This document shows, one piece after another, positions 14,083-62,063 of a stretch of 64,000 nucleotides of DNA. Each line of letters opens with the position of its first letter. Positions within the stretch are counted from its first letter, which is position 1. Source of the stretch: Octopus vulgaris. Lineage: Eukaryota. The notes under the pieces are model-generated. The model worked only from the letters and a program-made list of their open reading frames with translations. It had not been told where the DNA came from and made no database searches. The DNA lies in assembly GCA_951406725.2 (NCBI GenBank), contig OX597839.1:9858001-9922000 (forward strand). Reading direction: 5' to 3'. A program made the translations under genes and the position numbers.

Positions 14083-15600
14083 GATCAGTTGTTAATAATG
14101 TTCAACCTATCACCGAATATCTAAATCCAGAAATGTTAGCGGCCGCAGCCTTCGTCGTTGTTGCGCAAACCCAGTCGGTTGTTACAGTTTAAACAAAGTA
14201 TCTCCAGCGCGTATCAAACGTAATAAAAAAACTGAGACGGGTAGGTTTGAAAGAACCAACCACAAAGTGTCACCGTCCCTTTTGTCACTACTGCTCTCCG
14301 AGTTGCGAGTGTGTTTGTCTGTGATGTGTGTATGTATGCGTGTGACGATTGTGTGTGTGCAAACATGTGTGTAGATTTTAAAAAATTGCTTTGGACCGTC
14401 GTAAGAGGAAAACAGCCGAAGTGATGCGAGAAAAGTATTCTTGCCCGATTTAGGAAAGTTGTCAGTGGTCAGGGAGTTTCTATTCAAACAATTAGAACGC
14501 TAACTTAATATACACGAGATAATGGAAGCATTACTGTCTGCGAACAAAACAATATTGTTCGAATGTTATATATATATAAATATATATATAAACACAAAGT
14601 TAGATAATTTGTCTACGGACGTCAGAAGTACAACAGACAATTACACGTTTATCAAGAAGTACTCATCCAAAAATATAAAAGAAAAAAAAAAGACAATGGG
14701 ACCTTTCGGAGACACTTCATATCAGACGGCCAGTGTTCGCAAGAGATATACAAATAACAAAAATGTTGCAATTCAATCGGTTTGTTCGTAGTTTTAAGTC
14801 ACTGACCAGAAGCACATGTATGATGAGAAAATATATTTCCAGTTGTAAAAAGTGTCCTTTTTTTTTTCAACTGCAGCATTTAACAAAAATCCCTTTCACT
14901 CTCCTTCGTTGAGCTTCGAAGAACAAATCTACAAAACAACAAATGTTAGACTTCCTAAGTTTCACCACCACCATTACCACTACAAAAACTGATAAGACCA
15001 CCTCTACTACCACTACAGCTAAGAAAATAATCACTGCTACTACTACTACTGACACTGCTAATAATACTAATAGTATTACTTATATTACTATTAATACTAC
15101 AACTACCACTATTACAACTACAAAACAGGAGGGAGGGGTTGTACTTTGCTAGGATTGGTGTTGGCGGGGATGATAAGATAAAAGTAATTAGTGTGTCGCG
15201 TGTGTAACAGTTAGTGCGCGCGCCTTCTTACGTTTGGCTATGTGCAAGTGTGTAGGTGGCAGTGGTAGAGGGAGAAAGAGTGCGATAGAGCAGACGGGGA
15301 AAGTGAACCTTTGACGCGGGTAATAGAGATAAGAGAGGTACTGTTGGTTGTGCGCGGCAACGCTTTCTTCTGCTGGTTGTGAAAGGAAACACCAAATAAA
15401 CAAACGTGAGTCTGTGGCGAGGCTAGAATCTGCTTCTTAATCCTATAACATGGCTGACAACTATCCGGGCACCTGCCAAACAAATACTTCCGCATCGTAC
15501 ATCGTAGACGAACTTAGAGAGCTAACCAAGGTGTAACAACTTGGACGAAATGCACATCGATAGAGACGAGATGTTTTTTTTGCCATTCATATCATATCTA
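14083..15600 (-). promoter_or_regulatory. Probable 5'UTR/promoter region of the MYO18-like gene
   Basis: Transposon-free and relatively CpG-rich stretch directly upstream of the ATG, containing an (ACT/ACC)n tract at about 14960-15120. TSS cannot be located. Confidence 0.35.
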
Positions 15601-22822: not shown

Positions 22823-24289
22823 GGTACTTGTCTATTGTCGTGGTCCCGGTTTCGCACACGCGAATTCGCGCGCCAGACGTAGGTACTCGATACTCGAGAT
22901 CCTACGAGGTGACTTGCGCATGCGCAGTGCAGAATTCGCGCATGCGCGTTACCCCCCCTAAAAAAAAAGGTGTTGGATTTCACTAAAAATATATATGTGT
23001 GTGTGTGTATATAACATTTTCAATTTTACACAAAAAAATTACATAGTCGCTTTCCTCGCGGATTTACAGATAAATGAATTAATTACTATTTTACAGAATA
23101 AAATTAATGAATTAATTATATAAATTAAATAATTCTTGAAAATTAATTAATATTAATAATATTTTTTGAACAAAGTAAATAATTTATAAAACTTGGTTAA
23201 TTTTTTTTACACAAACGCGAACGTATATAATTTGTGAAACTTTTTTTTTTTTACAGACGTATATAATTTGGTAAACTTAATGAATTAATTTCTTCTCATC
23301 ATCATCATCGTTTAACGTCCGTTCTCCATGCCAGCATGGGTTGGACGGTTCGACCGGGGATCTGGGAAGCCAGAAGGCTGCACCAGACTCCAGTCTTATC
23401 TGGCAATGTTTCTACAGCTGGATGCCCTTCCTAACGCCAACCACTCCGAGAGTGTAGTGGGTGCTTTTTACATGCCACCCGCACAGGTGCCAGGAGAGGC
23501 TGGCAACGGCCACGGTCGGATTGGTGCCAGTCGAGGCGGCTCTGGCATCGGCCACGATTCGGATAGTGCTTTTTACGTACCACCAGTCCAGGGGTCCTGG
23601 CATTTGCCGGGTGCCACACTTGCCCCAACATGTCTTCGCAAGCAAAGGGGGTTGGCGTGGGTGCCTGTCGTGGGATGAGGTTCGATATCAACTTCGCTTG
23701 CCTCAACAGGTCTTTGTGTATAAATGTATAAATTTTTCGCACTAAATTCTTTCCGTAGAATTTATCAAAAAACGCGCAAAATTATTCCGTAGAATTTATC
23801 AAATTAAAAAACGCAAAATTAATATATTTTTTGAAATTGCAAATTATTTAGAATATAAAACAAATGAAGTTAAATTTTAAAAATAAATGTCGTATACTTA
23901 TACTCTGTAAGGTGCTGTGTTCACACTTCAATTTACTATTTTCTAGAAATGTTGCTTTTCTAATTGAAACAATTTTTCTCAATCTCCATTTAAAAGTCCA
24001 TAATGCCTCTTGAGCCATATCAAAATGAACAACTTTGAATTACGTGGTGGTGGTGTGAGGTTCTAATTTTTTTTTCTGATCTCTCTTTGCCCCCTCTTTA
24101 TCTCAGTTGTTCATTCCGCTAATATTTAGAAAAATTTTCGCGCCCAATTTTTGTTGTCGCATGAAAAGATGAACGATTTAAAATAAATATATCTTAATTG
24201 TAGTGTGAGAAAGTATATATATTCTGATGACAAAATATATTATCTTTCAAAAACATCCCAAATTTATAGACTATATCGTGTAGGTTTAA

Positions 24290-24338
<49 letters not shown>

Positions 24339-25474
24339 AGAATGAAACATCTTTCATCTGTCTCCCCACCACACCTCCATCTAGGGGGGCAAAGAGAGAT
24401 CAGAAAAAAATTAGAACCTCACACCACCACCACCGCCGCCGCGTAATTCAAAGTTGTTCATTTTGATATGTCTCAAGAGGCATTATGGACTTTTAAATGG
24501 AGATTGAGAAAAATTGTTTCAATTAGAAAAGCAACATTTCTAGAAAATAGTAAATTGAAGTGTGAACACAGCACCTTACAGAGTATAAGTATACGACATT
24601 TATTTTTAAAATTTAACTTCATTTGTTTTATATTCTAAATAATTTGCAATTTCAAAAAATATATTAATTTTGCGTTTTTTAATTTGATAAATTCTACGGA
24701 ATAATTTTGCGCGTTTTTTGATAAATTCTACGGAAAGAATTTAGTGCGAAAAATTTATACATTTATACACAAAGACCTGTTGAGGCAAGCGAAGTTGATA
24801 TCGAACCTCATCCCACGACAGGCACCCACGCCAACCCCCTTTGCTTGCGAAGACATGTTGGGGCAAGTGTGGCACCCGGCAAATGCCAGGACCCCTGGAC
24901 TGGTGGTACGTAAAAAGCACTATCCGAATCGTGGCCGATGCCAGAGCCGCCTCGACTGGCACCAATCCGACCGTGGCCGTTGCCAGCCTCTCCTGGCACC
25001 TGTGCGGGTGGCATGTAAAAAGCACCCACTACACTCTCGGAGTGGTTGGCGTTAGGAAGGGCATCCAGCTGTAGAAACATTGCCAGATAAGACTGGAGTC
25101 TGGTGCAGCCTTCTGGCTTCCCAGATCCCCGGTCGAACCGTCCAACCCATGCTGGCATGGAGAACGGACGTTAAACGATGATGATGATGAGAAGAAATTA
25201 ATTCATTAAGTTTACCAAATTATATACGTCTGTAAAAAAAAAAAGTTTCACAAATTATATACGTTCGCGTTTGTGTAAAAAAAATTATTAACCAAGTTTT
25301 ATAAATTATTTACTTTGTTCAAAAAATATTATTAATATTAATTAATTTTCAAGAATTATTTAATTTATATAATTAATTCATTAATTTTATTCTGTAAAAT
25401 AGTAATTAATTCATTTATCTGTAAATCCGCGAGGAAAGCGACTATGTAATTTTTTTGTGTAAAATTGAAAATGT

Positions 25475-25513
<39 letters not shown>

Positions 25514-25690
25514 TTTTAGTGAAATCCAACACCTTTTTTTTTATGGGGGGGTAACGCGCATGCGCGAATTCTGCACTGCGCATGCGCAAGTCACCTCGTA
25601 GGATCTCGAGTATCGAGTACCTACGTCTGGCGCGCGCGCGCGAGAGAATTCGCGTGTGCGAAACCGGGACCACGACAATAGACAAGTACC
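22823..25690. mobile_element. Foldback (MULE/FB-like) DNA transposon, 2.87 kb, non-autonomous
   Basis: Inverted arms 22823-24094 and 24385-25690 with termini GGTAC...GTACC, a 290-bp spacer with (TA)n, and an exact 9-bp TSD CATTTCTTT (22814-22822 and 25691-25699). Confidence 0.9.
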
Positions 25691-36890: not shown

Positions 36891-38375
36891 GTATGTTTCA
36901 TCATTCTACTCTAAGTGGCTGCTGCTTCTTTTTCTGACAAGTGAGACTTTATCTTCATTTTTCATTTATTTATATTTTCTTTAGATTCTCCTTTGTTCAA
37001 CTGTTACCACCAATAACCCAGACAACTGCAATGAAAGATCTTCCTTTAAACCAAGATTTATTATTCTTTGGTTTTTCAGTGTTCTTAGATTCTATACTAC
37101 CAGTGATATGTATGTTGTTAGTAAATTTCACAAGAAATGATGTTTCTAATCATTATAATTCCCAAATTCCCAGGTCTTGACCACCGTACTTATAATAATC
37201 GTGGCAGCTAGAAGGACAGACATACTGCAGCAGAGTTTGTACCTAAATAGGTCAGCTCCTGTCCAGTTGAACTTCGCCTGACATGGCTGAGGTCGTAGGT
37301 CAAAGGGAGATGACCAATCACTTTTTGACAGGACAAAAAAAAACTTTTTTCGCACCTGTTGATCATGGTGGTTTGGACGACCTAGAACTCTTAGATTTGG
37401 TTTCGAATCTAGGCTTGGAGAAGGAAGTGTCAATTTTTACATATTTATCATCCTACAGAGATCCATTGACTTTATGGTTCTGTGTATCATCATCATCATC
37501 ATTTAATGCCCATCTTCCATGCTGGTATGATTTGGTTGATTCAACAGGATCCAGTGAGTGGGAGGGCTGCATTCTGCTCAAATGTCTGCTTTGACATTTT
37601 ACAGAGTAATTTTTCTTTTTTGTGTCGTATCAATGAACTGGTGAGGTCACCATGTAACTCACACGACTAAGGTCCTCCTTAAACTGAGTGTGGCTATAGT
37701 AGAGAGGGGAGTGACTTTATGCTACAGGTTGAAAAGTGAAAGCAGTGGTTCCCAAAGTGGATGGAACTACCCCATGGGGCTGGTGGAAAGATCCAGGAGG
37801 GTGTTGAAGAAAAGTGAGGTGATAATTGGGTGGTCAAAAGGGGGCAATGGATGTAAAAACAACTAAATAATGGATTAAGTCGATTATATCGACCCCAGTG
37901 CGTAACTGGTACTTATTTAATCGACCCTGAAAGGATGAAAGGCAAAGTCGACCTCAGCGGAATTTGAACTCAGAATGTAATGGCAGACAAAATACCACTA
38001 AGCATTTCGCCCAGTGTGCTAACGTTTCTGCCAGCTCGCCGGCTTTGGTTGGCCCAGGGCTATAGTAGAAGACACTTGCCCAAGATGCCATGCAGTGGGA
38101 CTGACTATGTGGTTGGGAAGCAAACTTCTTTACTACATAGCCACACCTGCTTCCTTCTGTTTATTGTCGCATGTTTGCATTACATAAATTCTGCATCACC
38201 TCAGCTCTGTCTTCATTGAGTTATTTAGATGAGATGAAGTTACCAAATTGTTTCTGCAAAAGATATTGTTTTGTCTGGAAAATTTTTCTCAACACTGACT
38301 GGAGTGGAGTCCTGTCCTATGGATACTTATAATTCTCATCTAGTGTATAATACAACATTGACTAAAGTGTGGGCC

Positions 38376-40140
38376 CAGTCCCATGGATATTTGAAATTCT
38401 CATTTAATGTATAACACAAAATCAACTAGAGTGAGGGCCCAGTCCTATGAATATTTGAAATTCTCATTTAATGTATAACACAAAATCAACTAGAGTGAGG
38501 GCCCAGTCCTATGAATATTTGAAATTCTCATTTAATGTATAACACAAAATCAACTAGAGTGAGGGCCCAGTCCTATGAATATTTGAAATTCTCATTTAAT
38601 GTATAACACAAAATCAACTAGAGTGAGGGCCCAGTCCTATGAATATTTGAAATTCTCATTTAATGTATAACACAAAATCAACTAGAGTGAGGGCCCAGTC
38701 CTATGAATATTTGAAATTCTCATTTAATGTATAACACAAAATCAACTAGAGTGAGGGCCCAGTCCCATGGATATTTGAAATTCTCATTTAATGTATAACA
38801 CAAAATCAACTAGAGTGAGGGCCTAGTCCTATGAATATTTGAAATTCTCATTTAATGTATAACACAAAATCAACTAGAGTGAGGGAGTCCTATGAATATT
38901 TGAAATTCTCATTTAATGTATAACACAAAATCAACTAGAGTGAGGGCCCAGTCCTATGAATATTTGAAATTCTCATTTAATGTATAACACAAAATCAACT
39001 AGAGTGAGGGCCCAGTCCCATGGATATTTGAAATTCTCATTTAATGTATAACACAAAATCAACTAGAGTGAGGGCCCAGTCCCATGAATATTTGAAATTC
39101 TCATTTAATGTATAACACAAAATCAACTAGAGTGAGGGCCCAGTCCTATGAATATTTGAAATTCTCATTTAATGTATAACACAAAATCAACTAGAGTGAG
39201 GGCCCAGTCCTATGAATATTTGAAATTCTCATTTAATGTATAACACAAAATCAACTAGAGTGAGGGCCCAGTCCTATGAATATTTGAAATTCTCATTTAA
39301 TGTATAACACAAAATCAACTAGAGTGAGGGCCCAGTCCCATGGATATTTGAAATTCTCATTTAATGTATAACACAAAATCAACTAGAGTGAGGGCCTAGT
39401 CCTATGAATATTTGAAATTCTCATTTAATGTATAACACAAAATCAACTAGAGTGAGGGCCCAGTCCTATGAATATTTGAAATTCTCATTTAATGTATAAC
39501 ACAAAATCAACTAGAGTGAGGGCCCAGTCCTATGAATATTTGAAATTCTCATTTAATGTATAACACAAAATCAACTAGAGTGAGGGCCCAGTCCAATGGA
39601 TATTTGAAATTCTCATTTAATGTATAACACAAAATCAACTAGAGTGAGGGCCCAGTCCCATGGATATTTGAAATTCTCATTTAATGTATAACACAAAATC
39701 AACTAGAGTGAGGGCCCAGTCCTATGAATATTTGAAATTCTCATTTAATGTATAACACAAAATCAACTAGAGTGAGGGCCCAGTCCTATGAATATTTGAA
39801 ATTCTCATTTAATGTATAACACAAAATCAACTAGAGTGAGGGCCCAGTCCTATGAATATTTGAAATTCTCATTTAATGTATAACACAAAATCAACTAGAG
39901 TGAGGGCCCAGTCCTATGAATATTTGAAATTCTCATTTAATGTATAACACAAAATCAACTAGAGTGAGGGCCCAGTCCCATGGATATTTGAAATTCTCAT
40001 TTAATGTATAACACAAAATCAACTAGAGTGAGGGCCCAGTCCCATGGATATTTGAAATTCTCATTTAATGTATAACACAAAATCAACTAGAGTGAGGGCC
40101 TAGTCCTATGGATATTTGAAATTCTTATCTAAAGTATAAT
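38376..40140. repeat. 64-bp minisatellite, 27 near-identical units, in a STN1 intron
   Basis: Unit CATTTAATGTATAACACAAAATCAACTAGAGTGAGGGCCCAGTCCTATGAATATTTGAAATTCT with period 64 (one unit has a 3-bp deletion). Degenerate units extend to about 38295 and 40380. Confidence 0.97.
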
Positions 40141-40447
40141 ACATCAGTGTCTTGAGTGAGAGCCCTATGACATGGAGACTTGTGGTTCTCGTCCAGTGTA
40201 CAATACAATAGTGACTAGAATGAGTGCCCAGTCCCATGAAATACTTGGAATTCTCATCTAGAGTATAATACTATCTTGACTGCAGTGTTAGCCTAGTTAT
40301 AAGCATAATATTAATTTTCATCTACTGCATAATTCAAAATCAATAAGAGTAAAGGCCCTGTCCTATAGATACTTGCGGTTCATGAAAGAAATAGATTTCA
40401 TATTGGTTGACTTTGTGAATTAATTTTGATATTTTTGCCTCTTGCAG

Positions 40448-46486: not shown

Positions 46487-46662
46487 TTACAAACAAATCA
46501 TGAAGTCAAGATCTTCAATCTGATTCTGTAAGACTTTCAGTTCTGCAAAATGGCTTTCTCTGTTGCCATTTGTTTCAGTGTTGTTGTTGTCATTGTTGTG
46601 TAGGCTGAAAACAGATTCTATGGAACCAGCATCACCGATATCAGGAACATTCAGGTTTCCTT
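46487..46662 (-). CDS. Unknown gene, terminal coding exon
   Basis: Pyrimidine-rich acceptor ..CCTGTTAG| then EGNLNVPDIGDAGSIESVFSL..ELKVLQNQIEDLDFMICL*. Phase 1 matches the upstream exon. Confidence 0.65.
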
Positions 46663-46959
46663 CTAACAGGATCAGTAGATATAGATGATTAGATATGGAG
46701 AAAGATAGAGAGAGAGAGACAACATAAACAAGGAGAAATACAGAGAGAGAGATATCTTCATCATCGTTTTAACCACTACTTTTCCATGTTTGCATGATTC
46801 AGATGAAATTCAGTGGGACAGAATTTCTGAGGCAGGATGCTATTCCTGTTACCAACCCTCACACAGGTAGTGTGATAATTTATATCAATTATAAATGCAG
46901 ATACTTGGGAAAAATATTGGTAAACAGAGATTAAGTAAAACAGTGTAAATAGTGTGTGG

Positions 46960-47500
46960 TATAATAGACGATAAATTACATTTCATGGGCAAAACATGTA
47001 TCAACATCACATTTTGAGGAGAGACATGCAAAGCAAAATAATTTTTTGTGGATAATACAGTCAATCTGTTTGGCACAGATTGGTTAGAACTATTTTATTT
47101 ATGGCAACTCCCCATAAATCTTTACTGCAGTAACATAAATGGTTGTCCTGTTAAAAACAAGTCTTCGGAAGAACTGAAGAAAAAGATTGAAAAAAATGTC
47201 CCCACAAGTGTTATCAAAGGATTTAGGTCTATGTAGAAAGATGGAAGCCCATTTCCAAGTAGGTGAAAACGCTGTGCCTGTACTTAGAGCAAACAGAAAA
47301 GTGCCATTCGCAGCAATTGAAACCGTAAATGGTTGGACAGACTTGAAAAGGGTAGAGTCATCAAAAAGGTGGATTACTCAAGGTGGGCAGCTCCCACAGT
47401 ATGTATTAAAAAAAAAAAAGATTAGACTGTGTGCCAATTTCTCTACAGGATTGAATGACTGCTTAAAAACATACTGCAGAAGACATTTTTTTCAATTTGC
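46960..47500 (+). mobile_element. Gypsy-like LTR retrotransposon pol relic (protease/RT junction)
   Basis: NLFGTDWLELF, PVLRANRKVPFAAIE, WAAPTV and KIRLCANFSTGLNDCL across frameshifts. Confidence 0.75.
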
Positions 47501-48235
47501 AAGAGAAATGAGCAGCAGTACAGCTACAGAATGAAGGCAGCACTGGCTAAGAAAGAGTTACTTGAGCCAGAAACATTAACACTTATTTGTACTGTGTAGG
47601 AACAGTATTCTGCATTTAGGACATATACTAAATGCAGAATTGACAATACAATTGAAAGTGACACTTGCAAGGTGTGTGGTGATAAAGGTGAGATTGTAAG
47701 GTATATTGTGAATGAGTACACAAAGCTGGCCCCAAAAGAAGACATGATAATGTTGCAAAAGTGATTCTTTGTGAGCTATGTGGCAAGTATAGATTGAAAA
47801 AGGCAAAGGTGTGTTACAGGAAACTCTCAGGAGTAATTAAGAACGACAAGGTAAAGATACTGTAGGCTGTAGTGTCTAAAATGATCATGAGATTCAACAT
47901 GGAAAGTTGGATATAGAGGTTGTGAATAAAGAGGGGGGGCGTGTTTAAGCATAAATATTGCATGCCCTGCTGATGCCGGTGAATTAGAAAAAGAAGAAAA
48001 TCAGGTCAGACATGATGTGATAGGGAAATATAAAGACTGTGGTCATTGAAAGTGGATGTTATACTGAAAGTACCAAGATTACAAACTTGCTTGAAAAGAG
48101 AAGGGTAAATGTGCATGAATCCTCCATGGAGTCCTTGAAATCTGAATGAAGAGAGTAACCTAAGTCCACTGGTTATGGACAGCTGACCCTTTATTACATT
48201 TTCCACTGAAGTTGCAGTAAGTACCAAGATTACAA

Positions 48236-48696
48236 GTAGAGACTTCAAACTTGAAATCTTCAAAGCCACAGTTGAACCAATTCTACTATATGGCTCAGAA
48301 ACCTGGACGTTATCAAAGAAGCTTGAGAGGCATTTGGATGGAACCTACACTCGCCTCCTTATGAGAGCTCAAAATCTCTTGTGAAAGCGCCATCCAACCA
48401 AAATGCAAATATATGGGAAACTACCACCTGTGTCATCTCTTGTGAAAGGTAGGAGAGTCCAGTTTGCTGGACATTGTTGTAGAACTGAAAAAGAGGTAAC
48501 TTCTACTCTCCTCCCTGGAAGCCATCTACTCGCAATGCCAGAGGGCGCACACTCTCCTACCCTGATGTAATCTCCAGAGATACAGGCATTCAGGCATCCA
48601 GCAACAGAACCTCCGTAATGCCATGACGGACCGTGAAGTCTGGTGTAGCATGGTAAATTCCATTGTCTCGACCACGGTCGAACAATGATGATGATG
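48236..48696 (+). mobile_element. RTE-like LINE 3' fragment
   Basis: FKATVEPILLYGSETWTLSKK..LDGTYTRLL..RVQFAGHC, a (GAT)n tail and TSD AAGATTACAA. It sits in the second copy of a ~150-bp tandem duplication. Confidence 0.8.
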
Positions 48697-50268
48697 AAGA
48701 TTACAAACTTGCTTGAAAAAAAAAGGGAAAATGTGCATGAATCCTCCACAGAGTTCTTGAAATCTGAATGAAGAGTGTAACCTAAGTCCACTGGTTATGG
48801 ACAGCTGACAACTTTATTACATTTTCCACTGAAGTGCTGTATAATGATGATTGATGATGATTGATGGTTTACATAATGATGATTGATGATTTACAATAAA
48901 AGACTGAATCAATGATTTGAATACAAGTAAAATCTCTCTCACCTTCTGTATAAGTTGTAAAATTCTCTATAGATGTTATGTCCCCTAAAAGGATCTGGTA
49001 GTCAGTGTCAGGAGTGCGGTAAGAGCTGGGATCAATGTAGTCTCTTAAATTTGCTCTTACTTTGTTTTCAGTTTCTTGAAATATTTCTGAAAGATATGTT
49101 TTTTTTACTTGATGTTATTTAAATTTAACACTGGACAAACATTCATTTCTACCAAATACAGATGGGACTGTTGACATCTCCCCCTTGTGAAGCCAACTTC
49201 ACACAGGAATTTGAACTCAAAGCATAAAGTAGTGGAGCTAAATGCCTTGGAATCTACCCTGAAATCCAATTCACTCATCTCCCTTTCTCTTGTACAGTAT
49301 GTGTGCCCTACCCTGGGGCCCACACTAATTATAATAGATCGTTACCACCATCGCCTTACTGGCACCTGTACATTGTTACCACCATCGCCTTACTGGCACC
49401 TGTGCCGGTGGCATATGTAAAAAGATTCGAGCGAGGTTGTTGCCTGTACTGCCTGACTGGCCCCTACACTCTCAGAGTGGTTGGCGTTAGGAAGGGCATC
49501 CAGCTGTAGAAACTCTGCCTAATCAAGATTGGAGCCTGGTGCAGCCATCTGGTTCGCCAGCCCTCAGTCAAATCGTCCAACCCATGCTAGCATGGGAAGC
49601 GGACGTTAAACGATGATGATGATGATGTTATCATTTTAATCAAAGTCATTGTCATGGTCATCACCGCCAATAAGTACCTGCAGCAGCAATGACACCATCA
49701 TCAATGTTACTATCACATCCTCATCATCATCATTTTATATTTTTTCCATACTGATAGGCATAGGAGTGGCTGTGTGGTAAGTAGCTTGTTTACTAACCAC
49801 ATGGTTCCAAGTTCAGTTCCACTGCGTGGCACCTTGGGCAAGTGTCTTCTACTATAGTCTCGGGCCGACCAAAGCCTTGTGAGTGGATTTGGTAGACGGA
49901 AACCGAAAGAAGCCCGTCGTATATATGTATATATATGTATATGTGTGTGTATATGTTTGTGTGTCTGTGTTTGTCTCCCACAATATCACTTGACAACCGA
50001 TGCTGGTGTGCTTACGTCACCGTAACTTAGCGGTTCGGCAAAAGAGACCGATAGAATAAGTACTGGGCTTACAAAGAATAAGTCCTGGGGTCGATTTGCT
50101 CGACTAAAGGCGGTGCTCCAGCATGGCCACAGTCAAATGACTGAAACAAGTAAAAGAGTAAAAGAGTATACAGGGTGGATGTGTCACCCACAATGGTACT
50201 TTGTCTTCCATTCCGCTATGGCAATTCGTCTTGCAGTGTGTGAATACAAACTGCCAGTGGCAACTTAC

Positions 50269-50346
50269 CATATTCAAACTGATAAGAGATATTGTATTGA
50301 TCCACCAACTTGAAGTGTTCCAATATGGCTGGAGTATCTGAAATAA
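50269..50346 (-). CDS. Unknown gene, internal exon
   Basis: TTTTCTGTTACAG| ISDTPAILEHFKLVDQYNISYQFEY |GTAAGT; phase 1-1. Confidence 0.65.
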
Positions 50347-51300
50347 CTGTAACAGAAAACAATAACAAGATTATGTTTAAAGAATAATGATATAATCACA
50401 TCTGTAATGTGGAAGGGATCAAATAAATCATGGCAAATTAACTTGGAAGCACCTCCACATATCTTTGGCTAAACAGATTACTCCAAAAGAATGTATTCCA
50501 GATAGTTCAACTGATCAGTACAGCAAGCAGTCCATACAGAGGCAAAGAGCTATTTACTGGTCTTGTCATGGGTATCCTGTAAACCTCAGTATGCATCAAA
50601 GGTGGTGGTGGTGACCCCCTTCGGTCAGACACTGACCATGGGTTTGCACCTAGAGAGTTACCCTCTGAGGCACAAGTCTGGGCAAGGTTGTTTTATGGAA
50701 GACCAGCAGTCGCCCATGCATACCGGCCTCCCCTCTCCACATCACCAATGTTGTCCAAGGGAAAGGCAAGGGCTGATATAGCTTGGCACCTGTGACGTTG
50801 CAACTCATTTCTACAGCTGAGTGAACTGGAGCAACGTGAAATAAAGTGTCTTGCTCAAGAACACAACACGCAGCCCGGTCCGGGATTCGAGCTCACAACC
50901 TCACAATCGTAAGCTCAACGCTCTAACCACTGAGCCATGTGCCTTCACATCAAAGGTATTATGCAGTATATCATTTATTAAACAAAAACAAATGGATAAT
51001 TCAAAACATCACTACACACGCTTCAGTAGCATAGTTTATTCTCAAATATTAAGTCAATTACATAACTTATTAGATTACATTAAATAAATCCTATTGTTAT
51101 ATAACCACTCAATTTCATCAGATGATATTCTGTCAAATATTTTGGTGAAATACAACGAATCTATGAGGGGGGAGACAGTCGCCCAGCAACAAAATTTGCT
51201 AAGGGGGTGCAAACCCAGGTCCTAATTTTTTAATGAAAAATGTGGATTTTTCCAATGTTAACATTAAAACAAATGCAGGTAAAATAATAATTTTTATTAT

Positions 51301-51800
51301 TATGAGGGTCGGCTGAAATGCTCATAATCTGAGCAAGACACTCTCAATAGAATGTGACCAAATGAAGTTCATTTTCTAACATAGTTCCTCTTAATGTCCA
51401 CACACTTCCATTAATAGTTGCAGTGCTTGGGTCGCACTGGTGAAGAAGCTTTTCTGTTGATCAAAATGGTCATCAACAACAGATAAGATGTTCTCATCAT
51501 AGTGATACTGGTGCTCAGCTGAGTGTTTTTCTATGTTGGGAAACAGATGATAACCAGAAGGAACCAAATCACTAACATAGGGAGGATGATCAACCAGTTC
51601 AAAGCCAGTCACACACAGCAGCCATTGAAACCAAGGACTTGTGTGCTGAAGCATTGTCCTAATAAAACAAGACCCCATTCATCAGTTTTTCTGGGTGTTT
51701 GGTCTTGATAGCCTTTCATAACTGCCTTAGGAAGTTGGTATTGAAATTTTCCATTGATGGTGTGATCATTTTGAAGATAGCCAATAAACACAATATTTTT
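51301..51800 (-). mobile_element. mariner transposase 3' relic
   Basis: HPPYVSDLVPSGYHLFP, matching the YSPDLAPSDYHLF motif. TA-flanked TIR-like end at 51301. Confidence 0.8.
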
Positions 51801-52132
51801 TTGCATTAATGCATAGTATATACAATAATGTGAAGTATATTTTGCATATTAAAATGTTTAATTTTGGAAATGTATCAAGCAGAGCTAAAATAAGCAGTAA
51901 AAATACAAATTGCAAATATTTCAAAATGTGGGACACTACATGACAAAAACTAACAAAAAAAAAAAGGAAGAAAATAGTGGTGTTTGTGTTCCAAAGGCAC
52001 AATGAGAAGGCTCAGGAGAAGGATAGAGAGATGGGGTAGAGGGAAGGAAGTTAGAAGGAAAGAAAAGAATGAAAAGTCAAAAGATAAACTAGGGATCTGA
52101 AATGAGTACTACGCAGGAAATTATCCCCTGTG

Positions 52133-52183
<51 letters not shown>

Positions 52184-52445
52184 CTATATATATGTATATA
52201 TATCCATAAAATGGAACAAGAATGCAACAGACGATAATAAAACATCAAGACAGATAGATAATACAAAGACAGACAGGAAAAACTAGGGACAGGTCATTCG
52301 CAACCTCCTCTCATCAGTCGAGTTACCAAATTATCCCTACAGTTTTGACCAGAGACTTCAAATGTGTCTGGCCCCAAAAATCTAAGTTAAGAGCATTAAA
52401 TTTTTGGGGAGAAAACATTTAATGCTCTTAACTTGTGGGTGGCAC

Positions 52446-53062
52446 GTAACAAATACTTTACAGAAAAACAGAGGTCGTGTTGCCCGAAGCTATTATGAAA
52501 GGTACCCAATTATTTCTGTCTGTCCTTTTTGTTGTTGTTGTTGTTATGGCTGGGTAAGCCACACTTGACATCAGTTCTGTTATTTTTGTAAAGAAATTGT
52601 GTATAAATTATGGAAAACTGCCGTTGGGGAAGCACAAATGTGTACGATCTCACACAGATCTACCCTTGACAACCTCCACCTTATGTGAAACATCATAGAG
52701 AGGGCAGCGATGAAAGCAGGCTTTGGTGGGGCTCTGATCAATTTGGATCAGTCTGACGCATTCTATAGAGTCAACTATCATTACTTGGAAACTGGCTGTG
52801 TTCACATCTATTTTCAGAAGTTGGGTCACTCTAATGCGCATCAGGAGTATCATCAGGCACTCACAGCCTTCTACCAGTTGGATAATGGGATCAGTGAATG
52901 TTCCACTGTAGTAATATTTAGAGGATTAGTTAGTAAAGTGGTGAGCTGGCAGAATCGTTAGCACGCTGGGCGAAATGCTTTGCAGTATTTTGTTTGCCGT
53001 TACGTTCTGAGTTCAAATCCTGAGTCAAACTTATCATATGGATGTATATACCAATATATTTT
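52446..53062 (+). repeat. Inverted duplicate of 54554-55166
   Basis: About 615 bp that is the reverse complement of 54554-55166 with scattered substitutions. ORFs 52650-52853(-) and 54763-54966(+) are nearly identical. Confidence 0.95.
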
Positions 53063-53670
53063 ACGGACGGGTGGCACGTAAAAAGCACCCACTACACTCA
53101 CAGAGTGGTTGGCGTTAGGAAGGGCATCCAGCCGTAGAAACACTGCCAGATTTGACTGGGCCTGATGAAGCCTTCTGGCTTCACAGACCCCAGTAGAACC
53201 GTCCAACCCATGCTAGCATGGAAAACGGACGCTAAACGACGATGATGATGATGATGAACTTAGATTTTTGGGGCTAGCCAGATTTGAACAGTCTCAAGTG
53301 TAACTAGCCGAAACTGTAAGAATAATTTGGTAACTTGATTGATGAGAGGAAGCTGCAAATGACCCATCCTTGTTTTTGCCTGTCCGTCTTTGTATCATCT
53401 ATCTGTCAGGTTGTTTAATTATTGTCTGTTGTGTTCTTGCGGTGTTGACTCTAAATTCTATAGAATATCAATAGAGATAAATTCATATAGATATGAGAGA
53501 CAGGGAGAAATATAAATATATCTATAAAATTTATAAATGTTTCATATGCAAAAATCTGGCAGAATAATGAGATAAAAGATGTGAAAATAATGATGAAGAT
53601 GATGATGATGGTAGTAGCAGTGGCAGTGACTAACAGGGAAGTAAGAGGAATAGGAAGGTCTTTGCCTTAC

Positions 53671-53929
53671 CATCTGAAGCACTGTATTTAGTAAGGTTGT
53701 TGTTATTGTTCAACCATCCTGCAGGTACTTTTCTTTTACTTTTTGTCTTTGGCTGTGTAGTATCGTGTCGGATTTTAACATTCCCAGATTTGTAGATTTC
53801 ATATGCAAGGAGATTCCTGATAGTAGATGTGGTAAATGTACTGGTAATTATAGCTGACATAACATTAGGGACAATGTCAGTAAGAAAAAAAATCCATGGA
53901 AAATGAAGATGACACACTTCTAGCAAAAA
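53671..53929 (-). CDS. Unknown gene, internal exon
   Basis: CCACAG| FLLEVCHLHFPWIFFLTDIVPNVMSAII..LTKYSASD G|GTAAGG; phase 0-1. The acceptor was chosen for frame continuity. Confidence 0.65.
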
Positions 53930-53939
53930 CTGTGGTTAG

Positions 53940-53999
<60 letters not shown>

Positions 54000-55166
54000 G
54001 AACAATACTAAGAAAAGATTGAAAATGCATCAAAATTTTTTAGATACACATATCTGTTTTTGTACTTAAAACAAGTTCAATTTTTTAACATAAGGGAAAA
54101 TAATTTTGTTTTATATATTAATATGTATACTCACTTTTCCTTGTTTCAGTCATTTGACTGTGGCCATGCTGGAGCGGCGCCTTTAGTCAAGCAAATCAAC
54201 CCCAGGACTTATTCTATGTCAGCCTAATACTTATTCTATCGGTCTCTTTTGCCGAACCACTAAGTTACGGGGATGTAAACACCAGCATCGGTTGTCAAGT
54301 GATGTTGTGGGGGACAAACACAGACACACAAACACATACATACATATATATATATATATACAACTGGCTTCTTTCAGTTTCTATCTACCAAATCCACTCA
54401 CAAGGCTTTGGTTGGCCCGAGGCTATAGTAGAAGACACTTGCCCAAGGTGCCACGCAGTGGGACTGAACCCGGAACGATGCGGTTCGTAAGCAAGTTACT
54501 TACCACACAGCCACTCCTACACCTATGGAAATAAAAATACAAAAGCTTAACTGAAAATATATTGGTATATACATCTATATGATAAGTTTGACTCAGAATT
54601 CGAACTCAGAACGTAACGGCAAACAAAATACCGCAAAGCATTTCGCCCAGCGTGCTAATGATTCTGCCAGCTCGCCGATTTACTAACTAATCCTCTAAAT
54701 ATTACTACATTGGAACATTCACTGATCCCATTATCCAACTGGTAGAGGGCTGTGAGTGCCTGATGATACTCTTGATGTGCATTACAGTGACCCAACTACT
54801 GAAAATAGATGTGAACACAGCCAGTTTCCAAGTAATGATAGTTGACTCTATAGAATGTGTCAGACTGATCCAAATTGATCAGAGCCCCACCAAAGCCTGC
54901 TTTCATCCCTGCCCTCTCTATGATGTTTCACATAAGGTGGAGGTTGTCAAGGGTAGATCTGTGTGAGATCGTACATATTTGTGCTTCCCCAACAGCAGTT
55001 TTCCATAATTTATACACAATTTCTTTACAAAAATAACAGAACTTATGTCAAGTGTGGCTTGGCCATAACAACAACAACAACAAAAAGGACAGACAGAAAT
55101 AATGGGGTACCTTTCATAATAGCTTCGGGCAACACGACCTCTGTTTTTCTGTAAAGTATTTGTTAC

Positions 55167-55205
55167 CTCACGGTATATAACAGCCCACTTCATTTTTTCT
55201 GTTAC
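55167..55205 (-). CDS. Unknown gene, 39-nt exon
   Basis: CCATTACAG| VTEKMKWAVIYRE |GTAACA; phase 0-0. Confidence 0.6.
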
Positions 55206-55253
55206 CTGTAATGGTAGATATTGGTAGAACAGTAAGTAAATGAAGCACACACA

Positions 55254-55503
55254 TACAGGTGGTATCAGAAAGTTCCCAGACTAGTTCTGTAGTGTACCAA
55301 AAGGTGGCAGCACACAGTTGCATGTGCAGTGAGAGCTAGCAGTGGCCTTCAAAAGGGTGTTTTCCGAGTGGCATCACTGTGATTACTTTGCAAGTTGTGA
55401 AATTTCTTGTTTTGTGATCATGTATATGCTGTAGTCTGTGATTTTGTCATGGACAGGAAGTTGGAACAAAGAACCAACGTGAAATTTTGCATTAAACTTG
55501 GAA
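55254..55503 (+). mobile_element. mariner 5' end relic
   Basis: TA-CAGGTGGTATCAGAAAGTTCCC TIR-like start followed by MDRKLEQRTNVKFCIKLG. Confidence 0.7.
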
Positions 55504-55673
55504 GTATAGGCGTAGGAGTGGCTGTGTGGTAAGTAGCTTGCTTACGAACCACATGGTTCCGAGTTCAGTCCCACTGCATAGCACCTTAGGCAAGTGTCTT
55601 CTACTATAGCCTCAGGCTGACCAAAGCCTTGTGAGTAGATTTGGTAGACGGAAACTGAAAGAAGCCCGTCGTA

Positions 55674-55728
<55 letters not shown>

Positions 55729-55904
55729 GTATATGTGTGAGTATATATATATATATATGTATTGTGTATATATGTTTGTGTGTCTGTGTTTGTCCCTCCA
55801 ACATCGCTTGACAACCAATGCTGGTGTGTTTACGTCTCTGTAACTTAGCGGTTCGGCAAAAGAGACCGATAGAATAAATACTAGGCTTACAAAGAATAAG
55901 TCCT

Positions 55905-57597
55905 ATATGACAAAGTTGCACAGTAAGACAGAGGAAGGTACATCAGTACCAATGAGGCTTTTTGGTGCATTTTCAATTTTCCCATTCATGAGAGACACTC
56001 AGCCATCATTCATTTGAGTGACCATCTAGAGAATGGCCACAGGGTTATTTTTATAAAACAAACAGCCTTGCAACAAGCACTTTCTCCAAAAGAAACTAAC
56101 CTTTTAAGTTGTGTGAAGTAATTGAAGATGCAAGAAAACTCCTTTATCTACAACTAGCAGTATCACCTGGCGTTTCTCGGGTTTGTAAGGGAAATAACTA
56201 TATAAGCATTTTTAGAGAGTTACCTCCGTTATATAAACCGAGCAAAAAATGCATTAAAAATGTGAAAAAATAATGGTAAATTTTTTTTTAAATCATAGAC
56301 TCATCATAGACACGTGATAATACCCAGAAGGGCTTGATATGAATCACAACTATAAGATACCCACTTTTGGTTAAACTGCACCGCAAAATGTGGGAGTAGT
56401 TAGGAATCTAAATTGGAGGAGACAGACTCTCACACACACAACTTCAGTTTTATATATAAAGATTACCCAAGTATTACACCTGGAAAAACAATAAGTGGCA
56501 CAAGAGGAAATGTGGAGCTGACATTCTTGCAAGAGTTTACAGTGTCTACCCAAGCCAAGCAGAATGCTACTGCTTACGGCTCCTTTTGCATCAAGTACGC
56601 GGTCCCAAATCATTCAAAGATTCAAGGAGGGTAAATGGTCATGTGTGTGAAACTTATAGGGCAGCCTGCTATCAAAAATGTTTTCAGAAAATGATGAGAA
56701 TTGGGACTTTGCATTGACTGGAGCATCAGTATCAGATTCTCCAAGGAAACTTTGTAACTTTTTTGCAGTTATACTGAACATGTGTCAACTTTGCAGATGA
56801 AACATCATGAGGATATAGCTGAAGATTTAAAGTATGCAATTCAATAGGCAAACCCAGATATCAATATTCAGTTCTCTGAAACAATTTTAAACCAAGCACT
56901 GATTGAAATTGATGATCAAGTTTTGGCCATTGGAGGCAAAAATTTACAAGAGTTTGGCTCTGGACTGCCAAAAACAAATTGTCAAATTAGTGATTTAATT
57001 TCAAGACATAGCAGGAGAGAAAAATTATGATATCACAAGTTGGCTGCATTTGTGAATGAACATGAACCTAAACTTCTTCCAGAACAATGTTGTGCATATG
57101 ATAAAATTATTTTATCAGTCAGAGAAAAAAGCAGAGAAATTTTCTTTCTTGATGTGCCTGGTGGCACAGGTAAAACATTTATAACAACATTGCTTCTCTC
57201 CAAGGTGAGGCAACAAAAAAGAATTGCAGTTGCTGTAGCATCATCTGGTGTTCCTTCCACCTTTCTCCCAAAAGGAAGAACAGCTCATTCTGCTTTTAAA
57301 TTCCTGCTAAACCTGGTCACAAATGACAGTCCAATTTGTAACATAAGCTAAGGTTCAGGTTCAGCAGAAGTGTTGTGCCAATACCACCTGATCATTTGGG
57401 ATGAATGCACCGTGTCACACAGAGGTGCAATGGAAGCTCTTGATAAGACCTTACAGGACATCAGAGGCAATAATAAATCTATGGGAGGAGTTGCATTAGT
57501 TTTATCAGGAAACTTCAGACATTACCAGTCATTCTGAAACAAACAAGATCTGATGAAATAAAAGCATGCTTTAAGTCTTCATACCTATGGCAAACTG
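55905..57597 (+). mobile_element. Helitron RepHel relic (Pif1-like helicase)
   Basis: YISTNEAFWCIFNFPIHER..HLENGHRV, FFLDVPGGTGKTF (Walker A), VASSG..GRTAHSAFK, IIWDEC and LQDIRGNNKSMGG. Multiple stops. Confidence 0.92.
56154..56462 (-). mobile_element. Non-autonomous Helitron nested in the RepHel relic
   Basis: Minus strand starts A|TC and ends in the imperfect hairpin CCCGAGAAACGCCAGG, then CTAG|T. Removing it restores the host frame LLYLQ/LPKYYTW. Confidence 0.8.
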
Positions 57598-57794
57598 TAT
57601 CAACCTCTTTGCCTTTCCTTTGGATAACACTGACGGCGTGGAGAGGGGAGGCCGGTATGCATGGGCGACTGCAGGTCTTCCATAAACAACCTTGCCCGGT
57701 CTTGTGCCTGGGAGGGTAACTTTCTAGATGCAATCCCATGGTCATAGGTGTCTACTCTTTGAATATATATATATATATATATATACATACATAC

Positions 57795-57825
<31 letters not shown>

Positions 57826-58138
57826 TATATACATACACATTATATTCATATTCACATACACAAAAACAGGTGCATATATATTCAACCCTTCATACATGCC
57901 CACCACAGACATGCTTTAGATCTAGTCCCGAGCTCCCCAGACCCCGGTCGAAACCGTCCAACCCGTGCTAGCGTGGAAAACGGACGTTAAACGATGATGA
58001 TGATGATGATGATACATATACACACACACACACATATATACTTACACATTATATTCATATTCACATACACAAAAACAGGTGCATATATATTCAACCCTTC
58101 ATACATGCCCACCACAGTCATGCTTTAGATCTACTTAC

Positions 58139-58291
58139 ATTGTTATAACCGCCTGCATCTAGTACCACACAGTAGAACTGGTATGGATCAATAGTGATAT
58201 TTTCCCACACTGCGACCTCAAGGTCCATATTGTTGAAAGTCAGGAACTTTTTCAAATCCACTGAAAAATCTGCTTCATGTCTGTGGTAATT
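58139..58291 (-). CDS. Unknown gene, internal exon
   Basis: NYHRHEADFSVDLKKFLTFNNMDLEVAVWENITIDPYQFYCVVLDAGGYNN |GTAAGT. Acceptor TTATAG at 58292 gives phase 0; an alternative TTTTTCAG acceptor at 58261 is phase 1. Confidence 0.62.
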
Positions 58292-59744
58292 CTATAATGA
58301 TAATAATAATTATTATTTCTACTATAGTAACAAGGCTAGGAATTTTCAGGGGAGGTGGTTTAGTTGATTGCAACAATCTCAGTACTTGCCTGGTACTTTA
58401 TTTTATTGACCCCTGAAGGACAAAAGGCGAAGTTGATCTAAGTGAAATTCAAACTGAGAACATAATGATTCAGAAGAAATATTATTAGGAAATTTGTTTG
58501 ATGCTCTGATTCTGCTGATTTCCTGTCTATACAGATAATAATCACCCTAACTGTCTGTAACATAAATATTTTGAAGATAATGAAGAGTTTAGTAAAATAA
58601 CTAAGTCATTATTGAGCTGCTGGTGTTAGAAACATAAATTACCATGAAGTTTTGATGGAAGATTTAAATTGTAATCGCTTTAAAACAGGAAGTTTGCATT
58701 GGTGTCAAAAGGATTAAAATAAGGAAGAATATATTGATAATGGGTGGAGGCGCAATGGCCCAGTGGTTAGAGCAGCGGACTTATGGTCGTAGGATCGCAG
58801 TTTCGATTCCCAGACCAGGCATTGTGAGTGTTTATTGAGTGAAAACGCCTAAAGCTCCATGAAGCTCCGGCAGTGGGTGATGGCGATCCCTGCTGTACTC
58901 TTTCACCACAACTTTCACTCTTTCTTCTGTTGGCCTGCTTGCTTAGCTAGCGTGGTGGCATCATTTGAAGGCTAAAACAATGTGAAGCGCATTGTGACCA
59001 GCGATGTGTAGCAACATCTGATAGCCTGGTCGGTCACAGGGACCACGGTGATATTGATAATGTAACCCCTAGACAAACAATGCATGAAAAAAATTGATGG
59101 TTTGGTTATGGTCAGAATGCTTATGACTGATGGTTTAGGGACCTGATAGAGGGTTAACCCTTTAGCATTCAGATTATTCTATCATATTTATTCACATTGC
59201 TTTGAATTAATCTTGCATTATTTTGTAGCTTCAAGGCAGCAAGCTGGCAGAAAGGTTGGTACGCTGGGCGAAATGCTTAGCAGTATTTCGTCTGTCTTTA
59301 GATTCCCAGTTCAAATTCCACCAAGGTCAACTTTGCCTTTCATCCTTTCGGGGTTGATAAATTAAGTACCAGTTGCATACTGGGGTTGATCTAATTGACT
59401 GGCCCTCTCCCCTAAAATTTTAGGCTTTGTGCCTAGAGTAGAAAAGATTATTTTGTAGCTTCAAGATTTTGATGATGTGATTGTTTATTTTTAGAATGAC
59501 ATGGTAGGGTAGATGTGAAAGGCCAGATCTGGGTGGTTTAAATATAAAACAGGTAGAATATTTTGGCCAGATATGACCAGTTTAAAAGCTAAAGGGTTAA
59601 ACAATAACAAACCCAACATCAAGAGCTGCACCAATAACAGCAACAACAAGAAAAACAGAGGGACAGCTGAATAGAAAAAAAGAGAGAAAATAGGTGGGGG
59701 AAGGGGAGAGAAGGGCAACCTTATCACATGATAACAGAAGTTAC

Positions 59745-59914
59745 CTCTATATCTTGTGTCAGTTTTTCTTCCAAGCTCATGCTTAGTGTAGGGTTCTTTG
59801 TAAAGCGAGTCATTACTGTTGTACTGTTACTCTGATTCACCTTGATGTTCGGGTCACTACACGGGCGCTGCGGTGTCTTTAGGTAGCCAGCTGCATCATA
59901 GACTGTAGAAGTAC
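59745..59914 (-). CDS. Unknown gene, internal exon
   Basis: ATCTGTAG| GTSTVYDAAGYLKTPQRPCSDPN..SLEEKLTQDIE |GTAACT. This is the only open frame; phase 1-0. Confidence 0.65.
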
Positions 59915-60249
59915 CTACAGATAGATGGATAGATAAGTAGGTACTTAGTTTCGTAGGTAGCTATATAGGTAGGCAACCAAGCAGATAGACACACACACAC
60001 ACATAAATATATAATCATAATCATATATGAATTTCATCGTCATTGTCTAACACCCACTTTTCCATGCTTGCATGGGTCAGATGTCCTTTCTGTCTCCAGC
60101 ATCTACCCGTTTCCCAGAAAGGTAATATTTCTCCATTGCCAGACATATTTTTGTGGAAGACTGGAAACAAATTACATTAACTGTATGACAGTGATGCTCA
60201 TTTACAATCATCACATGTCAAGACAAGGCTACATACAAACACAACACAC

Positions 60250-60306
<57 letters not shown>

Positions 60307-61600
60307 TACATATATATATATATTCACATATATATATATATATATATATAAAACAGAGTTTGTATGTGTGTATGTGTGTGTGCGTATGTTCCTTATGGAT
60401 TCAAAAACTGAGTTGCCAATTTTGATGTATGAGGTATCAAAAGAATCAGTAATCATTCAGCTATTAAATAAAGTATGATTTTTGCACAACACTTTTTTAC
60501 TACAAAAATAACCTCAAAAACAAAGTCAGGTTGCACAATTTTGAAGTCTTTAGCTAAGGGAAGCAAGTACACCTGAACCATCTTTGTCTTAGATAAAGCA
60601 TAAGAAAATGTTTAAAACACATGGAGTTTTGCCAGGGAATGAAACTTCAAAGATACACCGTCAACTTTATTGGTATTATTTAGTAGATAATCTTTTAATG
60701 TGAAGTATGTTTGTCTGTGTTTTGTTTACCCTACACTCGTGCAACCTTTACTCACCCAACCTTCGTGATCTTGCCCCCACACTCTCTACTAAATCACCTT
60801 CTTCTATTTTGAGGATATGCTTTAACACTTTATTTCCACCCCATTTACTCATAACAATCCTCATTTGATGTGAACTCGCCCTGTATTTTCTCTCCAACAA
60901 CAGACCTGTCCCTTTTTATCATACTTTTTCTCATACATCTCAACATCTGATTTAAAGCAACCTTCTCTTTTAATATATCTCCTCTCAGTTCAACAGAGGC
61001 TCTTTAGATTTGTGAGTTGCATGGTAACATCACAAGTGCTGGTGCCATGTAAAATGTTTCCAGTACATTCTGTAAAGTGGATAGCATTAGAAAGAGCATC
61101 TCACCATAGAAACCAAGCCAAAACTGAGACATTGGAACAAGACACAGTCCTCATATCTGTTGGATTCTGTCAAACCTATTTCTTTACTACCCACAAGGGG
61201 CTAAACACAGAGAGGACAAACAAGGACAGACAAATGGATTAAGTCGATTATATCAATCCCAGTGCATAACTGGTACTTAATTTATCAACCCCGAAAGGAT
61301 GAAAGGCAAAGTCGACCTTAGCAGGAATTTGAACTCAGAACATAACGGCAGACAAAATACGGCTAAGCATTTCACCCGGCGTGCTAACGATTCTGCCAGC
61401 TCGACGCCTTCTGTCAAACCATCCAACTCATGCCAGCATGGGTTGGATGGTTTAATGAATGTAATGGATTGCTTTCACACCACCCCAACTCATCACAACT
61501 AGCATCACACATCACCATACACAACTACCACCACACAACACAATTACACACACCACCACAACACAATTTCCACCAGTACCACACACTTTCTTCAACTCAC

Positions 61601-62063
61601 CAGATCCAACAGAACTACTCTCTATATATTCAGAGACAATGTTTTCTTCACTATCAAAGAAATGTTGCCTCTTAACAAGAGAGTGACTACAATGGGTATA
61701 GCTTTCTTGTGCTCCTGCATCCTGGAATTTTGCTGCCACGGTAACTGCAGCTGTTGTTGTTACTACTGGTGCTGTTACTTGTGTCAATCTGGAGAGTTTG
61801 GGGTCATCACAACTAAATTCCAATATAGGTCTATCATAGAAACTATGTTCTCCTTTTCTGGTGCTTGAAGTCATGGCCCTATTGTTATTGATGTTATTGT
61901 TTCCTATTTTGGTATTGTGTTCACTTCCAGTATAATTGAAGACACATCTTTTCAGTCTGACAGACTTGGACAACTTCTGAAAGATCTCTGCTTCTTTTAG
62001 GGCTCCTTGAATGCTGTTTCCTCTGAATGTGCTTTTATGACCCTTACTTTTAGGCATATACCT
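61601..62063 (-). CDS. Unknown gene, large internal exon
   Basis: AAACAG| RYMPKSKGHKSTFRGNSIQGALKEAEIFQKL..SSSVGS G|GTGAGT. 154 open codons in non-repetitive DNA. Confidence 0.72.

Follow-up and report, generated by a model that had tools for sequence, protein, structure and literature searches.

The closest described relatives of the locus reported here are LINE insertions that carry more than LINE sequence at their 5′ end. Template jumping and 5′ extra nucleotides at LINEs are described in PMC2912911, and Nam et al. 2023 (PMC10191854) report one such event, a somatic L1 insertion with co-inserted precursor mRNA from its vicinity, for which strand switching by the reverse transcriptase (RT) is offered as the explanation. 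Extra nucleotides, templated insertions and fold-backs at LINE 5′ ends (PMC4245944, PMC11702581, PMC10191854) are, as described, a few to about 220 bp long and drawn from the immediate flank. The U6/L1 and mRNA/L1 chimeras outlined in PMC13174262 consist of a truncated LINE preceded on its 5′ side by non-LINE sense sequence, the whole within one target-site duplication (TSD); their partners come from elsewhere, and the mRNA partners are mostly spliced.

The insert described here lies in an intron of an Octopus vulgaris gene, within a window of 64,000 nucleotides (the whole stretch of DNA that was analysed, G000:C26:9858001-9922000), and is neither an L1, a SINE, the capture of a cleaved intron nor a short fold-back. 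As in the L1 case of Nam et al., the 3′ end of a retroelement is joined to a piece of the neighbouring gene. Unlike that case, the element fits an RTE-type LINE with a GAT tail, the captured piece measures 613 nt, the sequence returns to LINE at its 5′ end, an RNA template is only likely, and the insert is inherited, because it is seen in both the assembly and an independent DNA run. With the LINE 5′ insertions it shares local sequence between TSD and truncated LINE, as well as microhomology, but the octopus copy is 613 bp long and comes from 1.3-1.9 kb past the tail; nor does it match the L1 fold-back inversions as PMC10191854 describes them, given this length and a source downstream of the tail. 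It resembles the chimeras of PMC13174262 in its arrangement, whereas the octopus capture is local and unspliced. Titles and abstract openings yielded no literature on this kind of event in octopus or in RTE elements, and the locus shows clearly, in inherited form and for an RTE-type LINE of an invertebrate, what has been described as a rare result of human L1 insertion.

The composite insert (52435-53256) reads, in order, TSD, a leader of LINE bases (-3 to +12), 613 nt of host sense sequence, a filler, LINE from base -2 to the tail, and TSD (Table 1). Much of this anatomy had been proposed beforehand from the letters of the window. AACTT does border the insert on both sides, at 52430-52434 and 53257-53261, and the anticipated GTAA microhomology is present, the last 4 nt of the leader being common to leader and captured copy. 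The inverted copy of ~615 bp is likewise borne out: in the 617-column alignment of 52446-53062 with 54554-55166, the latter reverse-complemented, 21 columns are substitutions and 4 are gaps (96% identity), and the first 62 nt of the copy do not differ from the source at all. A short leader also exists, but the SINE-like character ascribed to it does not hold, as comparison with the upstream sequence of 28 genome copies identifies 52435-52449 as a repeat of the bases with which the downstream LINE piece begins; at position 52436 an independent DNA run (X2) has C, the base of the LINE family. The filler looks like a stutter of CGG. The insertion struck a palindromic element, for which 'MITE-like' is our own label, and since the target is the centre of the palindrome, the empty site, judged by the left arm, would have held AACTT only once.

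Table 1. Coordinates of the composite insert, its target, its source and the surrounding host gene (positions in the window)
Feature	Position	Strand	Basis or content
Target element, left arm and centre	52217..52434	.	79% inverted match of 52217-52388 to 53257-53439; arm alignment
5′ target-site duplication, AACTT	52430..52434	+	
Leader, 15 nt	52435..52449	+	LINE 3′ UTR bases -3 to +12 of core motif
Captured copy, gene-sense	52446..53062	+	Alignment to source; tblastn
Filler ACGGA, 5 nt	53063..53067	+	Absent from source and from LINE at that point
5′-truncated 3′ UTR of LINE of apparent RTE type, (GAT)n tail	53068..53256	+	
3′ target-site duplication, AACTT	53257..53261	+	
Target element, right arm	53257..53439	.	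Inverted match and arm alignment
Source segment	54554..55166	-	Intron 54554-55110 and the last 56 nt of exon B
Host gene, 3′ part, 8 exons mapped	46490..62060	-	Orthologue of Octopus sinensis LOC118768051
Host exon B, 95 nt	55111..55205	-	Part of ARID domain; true donor 55111/55110, AAG/GTACCC
Host exon C, 146 nt	53671..53816	-	tblastn, junction sequence; enclosed by inverted repeat

An assembly artefact was considered and ruled out: a contig of run X2 spans 52368-52750 with one difference, and since it bridges the 5′ junction, the insert is real. A search of the animal's own genome (2.8 Gb) with 54690-55260, in which 40 of 1599 candidates were scored, returned only the source and the copy at 96% identity or above, the remaining 38 being 71-83% matches to an old inner repeat. 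Within that scored set, the ~615 bp are thereby ruled out as a dispersed repeat; it is a dispersed repeat that would have spoken against the original prediction. The source segment itself contains an older SINE fragment (54596-54677) and the old repeat (about 54772-54995), and it lies 1.3-1.9 kb from the insert. Contigs of organisms B (run X4) and D (run X12) match from exactly 52446 and then diverge from the stretch, behaving as contigs of the source locus would, and none of the 15 joints listed (of 185) crosses 52435-53256. As these contigs appear to be of source type and the source holds a conserved exon, we take 54554-55166 to be ancestral; the opposite polarity, with 52446-53062 as the older copy, is not what is found. 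The lack of a contig at 52436 in X4 and X12 is a gap in cover and carries no weight, and the depth ratios of arm to exon C (about 1.0 in D, about 1.4 in B and 1.7-2.9 in X2) are not copy numbers.

The retroelement piece had been read as a 5′-truncated SINE with a (GAT)n tail. Truncation and tail stand, but the element is not a SINE. Against its 28 best genome copies (L029, which lacks the core motif, left out), 53068-53256 shows 1 difference in 189 nt. Several of the best copies continue upstream into RT-coding sequence, and 45 of the 100 copies taken first from 2207 pattern matches reach the end of the LINE ORF. One copy holds a single ORF of 1059 aa, with Exo_endo_phos and RVT_1 above the cut-off and, after the RT, a PHD-like finger below Pfam's cut-off; its 3′ end is identical to that of the insert at 184 of 188 positions. 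A SINE, understood as a non-coding short element that has a head of its own, derived from a small RNA, is thus ruled out for 53068-53256, which is the 3′ UTR of a single-ORF LINE whose copies run into the ORF; a separate SINE with the same tail may exist. We take the C-terminal motif of the 1059-aa ORF as a pointer to the RTE clade, whose elements make long target duplications. A single ORF is given as a trait of RTE-clade LINEs in PMC9115989, and PMC6007223 describes for them a microsatellite-like 3′ end and target duplications of mostly 7-15 bp. The octopus element has both the single ORF, with APE-type endonuclease and RT, and the microsatellite-like end, (GAT)n. It therefore fits an RTE-type LINE, the clade being assigned from ORF architecture, tail and C-terminal motif rather than from an RT tree. 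It resembles RTE-2_OV, an RTE-clade LINE of octopus (PMC9115989), in its single ORF (~1100 aa in the latter) with endonuclease and RT and in its recent activity, but RTE-2_OV is described there with a C2H2 finger, and the PHD-like finger after the RT sets the insert's LINE apart by description.

The host gene encodes zf-CW, PWWP and ARID domains (Pfam, from the O. sinensis orthologue, the single protein matched by the exon query). According to the original prediction the copy begins, with no exon bases, at a splice donor at 55166/55167. That position lies inside a 95-nt coding exon, exon B: all four O. sinensis RefSeq isoforms (4/4) read through it to the true donor at 55111/55110, residues 506-537 form one block matching 55205-55110 at 100% (tblastn, all four isoforms), residues 537-585 map to 53818-53672, and the Pfam ARID match (residues 461-543) spans 55166/55167, the 19 codons that had been taken as intron belonging to this domain. 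Codon 519, 56 nt from the end of exon B, is where the captured copy starts, and from there it crosses the true donor; it comprises the last 56 nt of the exon (52446-52501), the donor and ~557 nt of intron, and host residues 519-537 match 52446-52502 at 100% (tblastn). It begins with GT because the LINE supplies GTAA at that junction. The upstream exon, drawn at 39 nt, is in fact 95 nt long (55111-55205), and the downstream one, drawn at 259 nt (53671-53929), spans 53671-53816 (146 nt). The present analysis thus corrects two errors, the splice-donor start and the SINE identity.

Exon C probably figures in a spliced product. A 573-nt contig of run X10 lies on 53671-53816 with 0 differences and has its other 427 nt off the stretch, as a spliced mRNA would; the RNA nature of X10 is a guess, none of the runs listed being labelled RNA. 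X10 reaches a depth of 17 at 52477, and its lack of contigs at 52508 and at 53826-53930 is a cover gap that carries no weight. Elsewhere in the host gene, the middle exons (61599-62060 and 59745-59921) show only 90-94% protein identity to O. sinensis, with a 6-residue gap, whereas the ARID exons are at 100%.

We lean, if only slightly, towards a single retrotransposition event in which the RT jumped from LINE RNA to the nascent, unspliced host pre-mRNA and back. The GAT tail would have served for priming at the nick; 189 nt of LINE would have been copied, with a run-off leaving the 5-nt stutter; the RT would then have jumped without homology to the host template at 54554, copied 613 nt of it through the donor into exon B, returned to the LINE RNA through the 4-nt GTAA pairing for 11 further LINE bases, and been joined to the target via a 1-nt T overlap. 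A single TSD surrounds the whole composite, retroelement tail included, and the captured piece comes from the gene at the insertion site, its sense strand co-oriented with the LINE. From the one TSD around all parts and the LINE on both sides we infer one event carried out by the LINE's own polymerase, and because the flanking LINE pieces share one orientation, that polymerase would have returned to the LINE template. Such re-copying of LINE pieces at 5′ junctions is a habit of this LINE family, found in 14 of 114 5′ flanks vs 25 of 570 control 3′ flanks (Fisher p = 0.003). The same subfamily also provides another local capture, in direct orientation (L021, below), which speaks for this reading.

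Since 55166 is not an annotated donor and the copy crosses the real one, the template was either unspliced RNA or DNA. Nascent pre-mRNA is likely, in view of a sense, co-oriented and unspliced capture from upstream in the transcription unit and of one L1 precedent, an insertion with co-inserted precursor mRNA from its vicinity (PMC10191854). A source upstream in the transcription unit would already be transcribed when polymerase II reaches the site. PMC13174262 assigns sense, co-oriented polarity to RT template switching; with one event, chance alone would give it in 50% of cases, and a displaced non-template DNA strand would offer this polarity too. Neither of the RNA-only marks looked for in the capture, an exon-exon junction and an editing cluster, was found. 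Six of the 21 substitutions between copy and source are sense A>G; organism B places that at 52640 as a change in the source and that at 52844 in the copy, and has a third base at 52838, the other 3/6 being without placement. ADAR marks in the copy were accordingly rejected as proof of an RNA template, there being no A>G cluster among the 21.

That local DNA served as template in the same single insertion is a reading we consider quite possible, though not probable. In one variant the cDNA end would have folded back on its own strand; in another, the upstream target end would have started the second strand on the cDNA, giving the 15-nt leader, then slipped through GTAA onto the duplex at a distance of 2.7 kb and, after 613 nt had been copied there, begun anew at the cDNA end. 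Length and position sit badly with a fold-back, since the L1 examples of PMC10191854 measure about 52-220 bp and are located on the 5′ side, upstream of the target, whereas here 613 bp come from 1.3 kb past the tail. Yet the starts of the two LINE pieces, at -3 and -2, are no more than 1 nt apart, as if the cDNA end had been used twice, and an unspliced capture is what a DNA template is expected to give. The junction 53062/53063, which has no homology and a filler, looks more like an end-to-end jump of the RT, but LINEs are described as carrying extra 5′ nucleotides derived from the flank, as well as templated genomic insertions (PMC4245944 and PMC11702581), a second capture in this family (L021, below) has microhomology at both ends, and a 135-nt capture at another element family may be antisense. 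The data here do not separate the RNA-template from the DNA-template reading.

An improbable course would be two events, a short LINE insertion followed by a templated repair insertion in its first bases that duplicated 13-14 nt of LINE. A direct repeat of 13-14 nt of LINE sequence does flank capture and filler, but the re-copying of LINE pieces at 5′ ends is frequent and needs no second event, and a second rare event would be required within 15 nt of the 5′ junction. Divergence differs between the arms (3.4%) and the LINE piece (0.5% from its nearest copies, which were picked as best matches, while the source allele carries changes of its own), although it is the arms that have the older look and the LINE piece the younger; a perfectly simultaneous origin is no more than possible. 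Contig 26 of organism B has 4 differences, all elsewhere, and therefore agrees with the copy at 52572, 52622, 52640 and 52708, from which it follows that part of the 3.4% arose in the source allele; organism D agrees with the source at 52622.

The idea of an RT that captured a local gene-sense segment during one retrotransposition therefore fits, whereas its more specific form, in which copying of a 5′-cleaved intron RNA stopped where that RNA ends, at a GT donor in use at 55166, is highly improbable: the copy does start with GT after GAG, and a minor donor may exist there, but all four orthologue isoforms read through to 55111, splicing at 55166 would remove 19 ARID residues and be out of frame with exon C, exon B holds 8 GT dinucleotides in its 95 nt, the LINE provides the GTAA, and the copy crosses the real donor.

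Captures of this kind are rare (below about 3% of copies) but not unique. Our survey covered 114 young copies with 5 kb on each side, namely the first 100 pattern places on contig C1 and 14 further copies, five of which repeat loci of the set of 28 close copies below (L095, without the pattern, was dropped). Inverted captures numbered 0/114 in these 5-kb flanks (upper 95% bound 2.6%), and with 3 distant direct matches in the 114 copies, one of them a tandem array, vs 28 at 849 random points, local captures were not enriched over random points in this set. Among 28 other close copies, searched with 1.5-kb flanks, L021 carries 80 nt between TSD and LINE for which a direct-orientation match of 100% identity lies 1267-1346 nt beyond its tail, and a 62-mer from these 80 nt occurs at only 2 places in the genome, the capture and the source. 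This copy (G000:C17:24686527-24686809, source near 24688077) took its 80 nt from a transposase-like ORF, presumably Tc1/mariner-like, at a distance of 1.27 kb from the tail. A survey of 444 kb surrounding the window, with 78 tailed copies, gave one doubtful second case, both arms of which are LINE repeats. In the same 444 kb, a 135-nt inverted local copy (L054:9070-9204 / L054:9753-9887, G000:C26; 98.5%) adjoins a different repeat with a hammerhead-like motif, which we take to be Penelope-like, and may be antisense to its host gene; for both this and the L021 capture, the homologue search for the host strand was blank and base skew weak. A genome-wide set of captures would test RNA against DNA templates in LINE 5′ captures.

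Other irregularities were seen at the 5′ junctions of copies. At five of them (L222, L197, L151, L202 and L203) the truncated LINE opens with two to several repeats of its initial 15-20 nt, which is polymerase stutter. 5′ inversions of the twin-priming type are known from L1, and inversions of LINE sequence occur in this RTE-type family in L033 (about 460 nt) and L158 (79 nt). Palindromes near the 5′ junction of L012 and L039 may predate the insertion.

At ADAR recoding sites, an intronic editing-complementary sequence pairs with the coding exon. In the octopus gene, too, an intron holds the reverse complement of a coding exon's end from the same pre-mRNA, but unlike the known sequences the copy is long, nearly perfect and a recent duplicate, and it is a putative partner only. 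The minimum-energy fold of the pre-mRNA 52400-55220 has 596 bp between the arms, the exon B donor included; the predicted hairpin of ~600 bp would cover that donor and 56 coding bases and loop out exon C, the pairing of intron with exon being a feature of the predicted fold only. Pairing of the inverted repeats over exons, as envisaged in the original prediction, is thus predicted here too, but around the 146-nt exon C and over the exon B donor and 56 coding bases instead of exons of 259 and 39 nt. Exon skipping, circRNA formation and ADAR editing, which the original prediction expected this layout to favour, would be possible effects.

The paired 56 nt of exon B contain 22 adenosines, at 14 of which A>G would change the residue. 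Neither exon C (146 nt) nor B and C together (241 nt) is divisible by three, and skipping would therefore cause a frameshift; the exon C acceptor is, however, transcribed about 750 nt before the captured copy begins, and splicing may therefore often win. Among the differences listed for X10 contigs none falls in 52446-52501, which says nothing against editing. Extensive A-to-I recoding and widespread repeat-directed editing are described for cephalopods (PMC9068888), which makes editing of the arms plausible and recoding of exon B possible by analogy. That a coding exon in octopus acquired its editing-complementary sequence in a single step, through capture by an RTE-type LINE, we regard as unlikely. 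If it were so, the ARID helix would become open to ADAR recoding in carriers, or their splicing would change, and new recoding sites could arise in octopus by way of local capture driven by LINEs. Should the hairpin act, a young and perfect intronic partner for 56 coding bases would provide a before-and-after test of the birth of a recoding site.

The window holds further repeats. Three pairs of direct repeats (93-97% identity) flank retroelement inserts in the manner of target duplications: one of 122 bp (57803-57924 / 58012-58133) around an 87-bp end of the same LINE, ending 2 nt from the donor of the exon 58136-58291; one of 139 bp (48075-48212 / 48697-48835) around a GAT-tailed piece of another LINE; and one of 85 bp (5115-5197 / 5605-5689) around a SINE. 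The 444-kb survey revealed further long flanking direct repeats of 70-347 bp, and none of the 114 young copies has very long ones in unique sequence. A 1.3-kb inverted repeat (22823-24094 / 24385-25690; 97%, 291-bp spacer) holds the same old LINE fragment in both arms and was therefore duplicated after that insertion. At 38290-40375 there is a tandem array of about 32 copies of a 64-bp unit, and the intron upstream of exon B contains broken ORFs (56404-57719) that, from a motif, we take to be a PIF1-type helicase of a Helitron. Finally, a 213-aa open frame on the reverse strand (13450-14091) looks like a coding exon of another gene.
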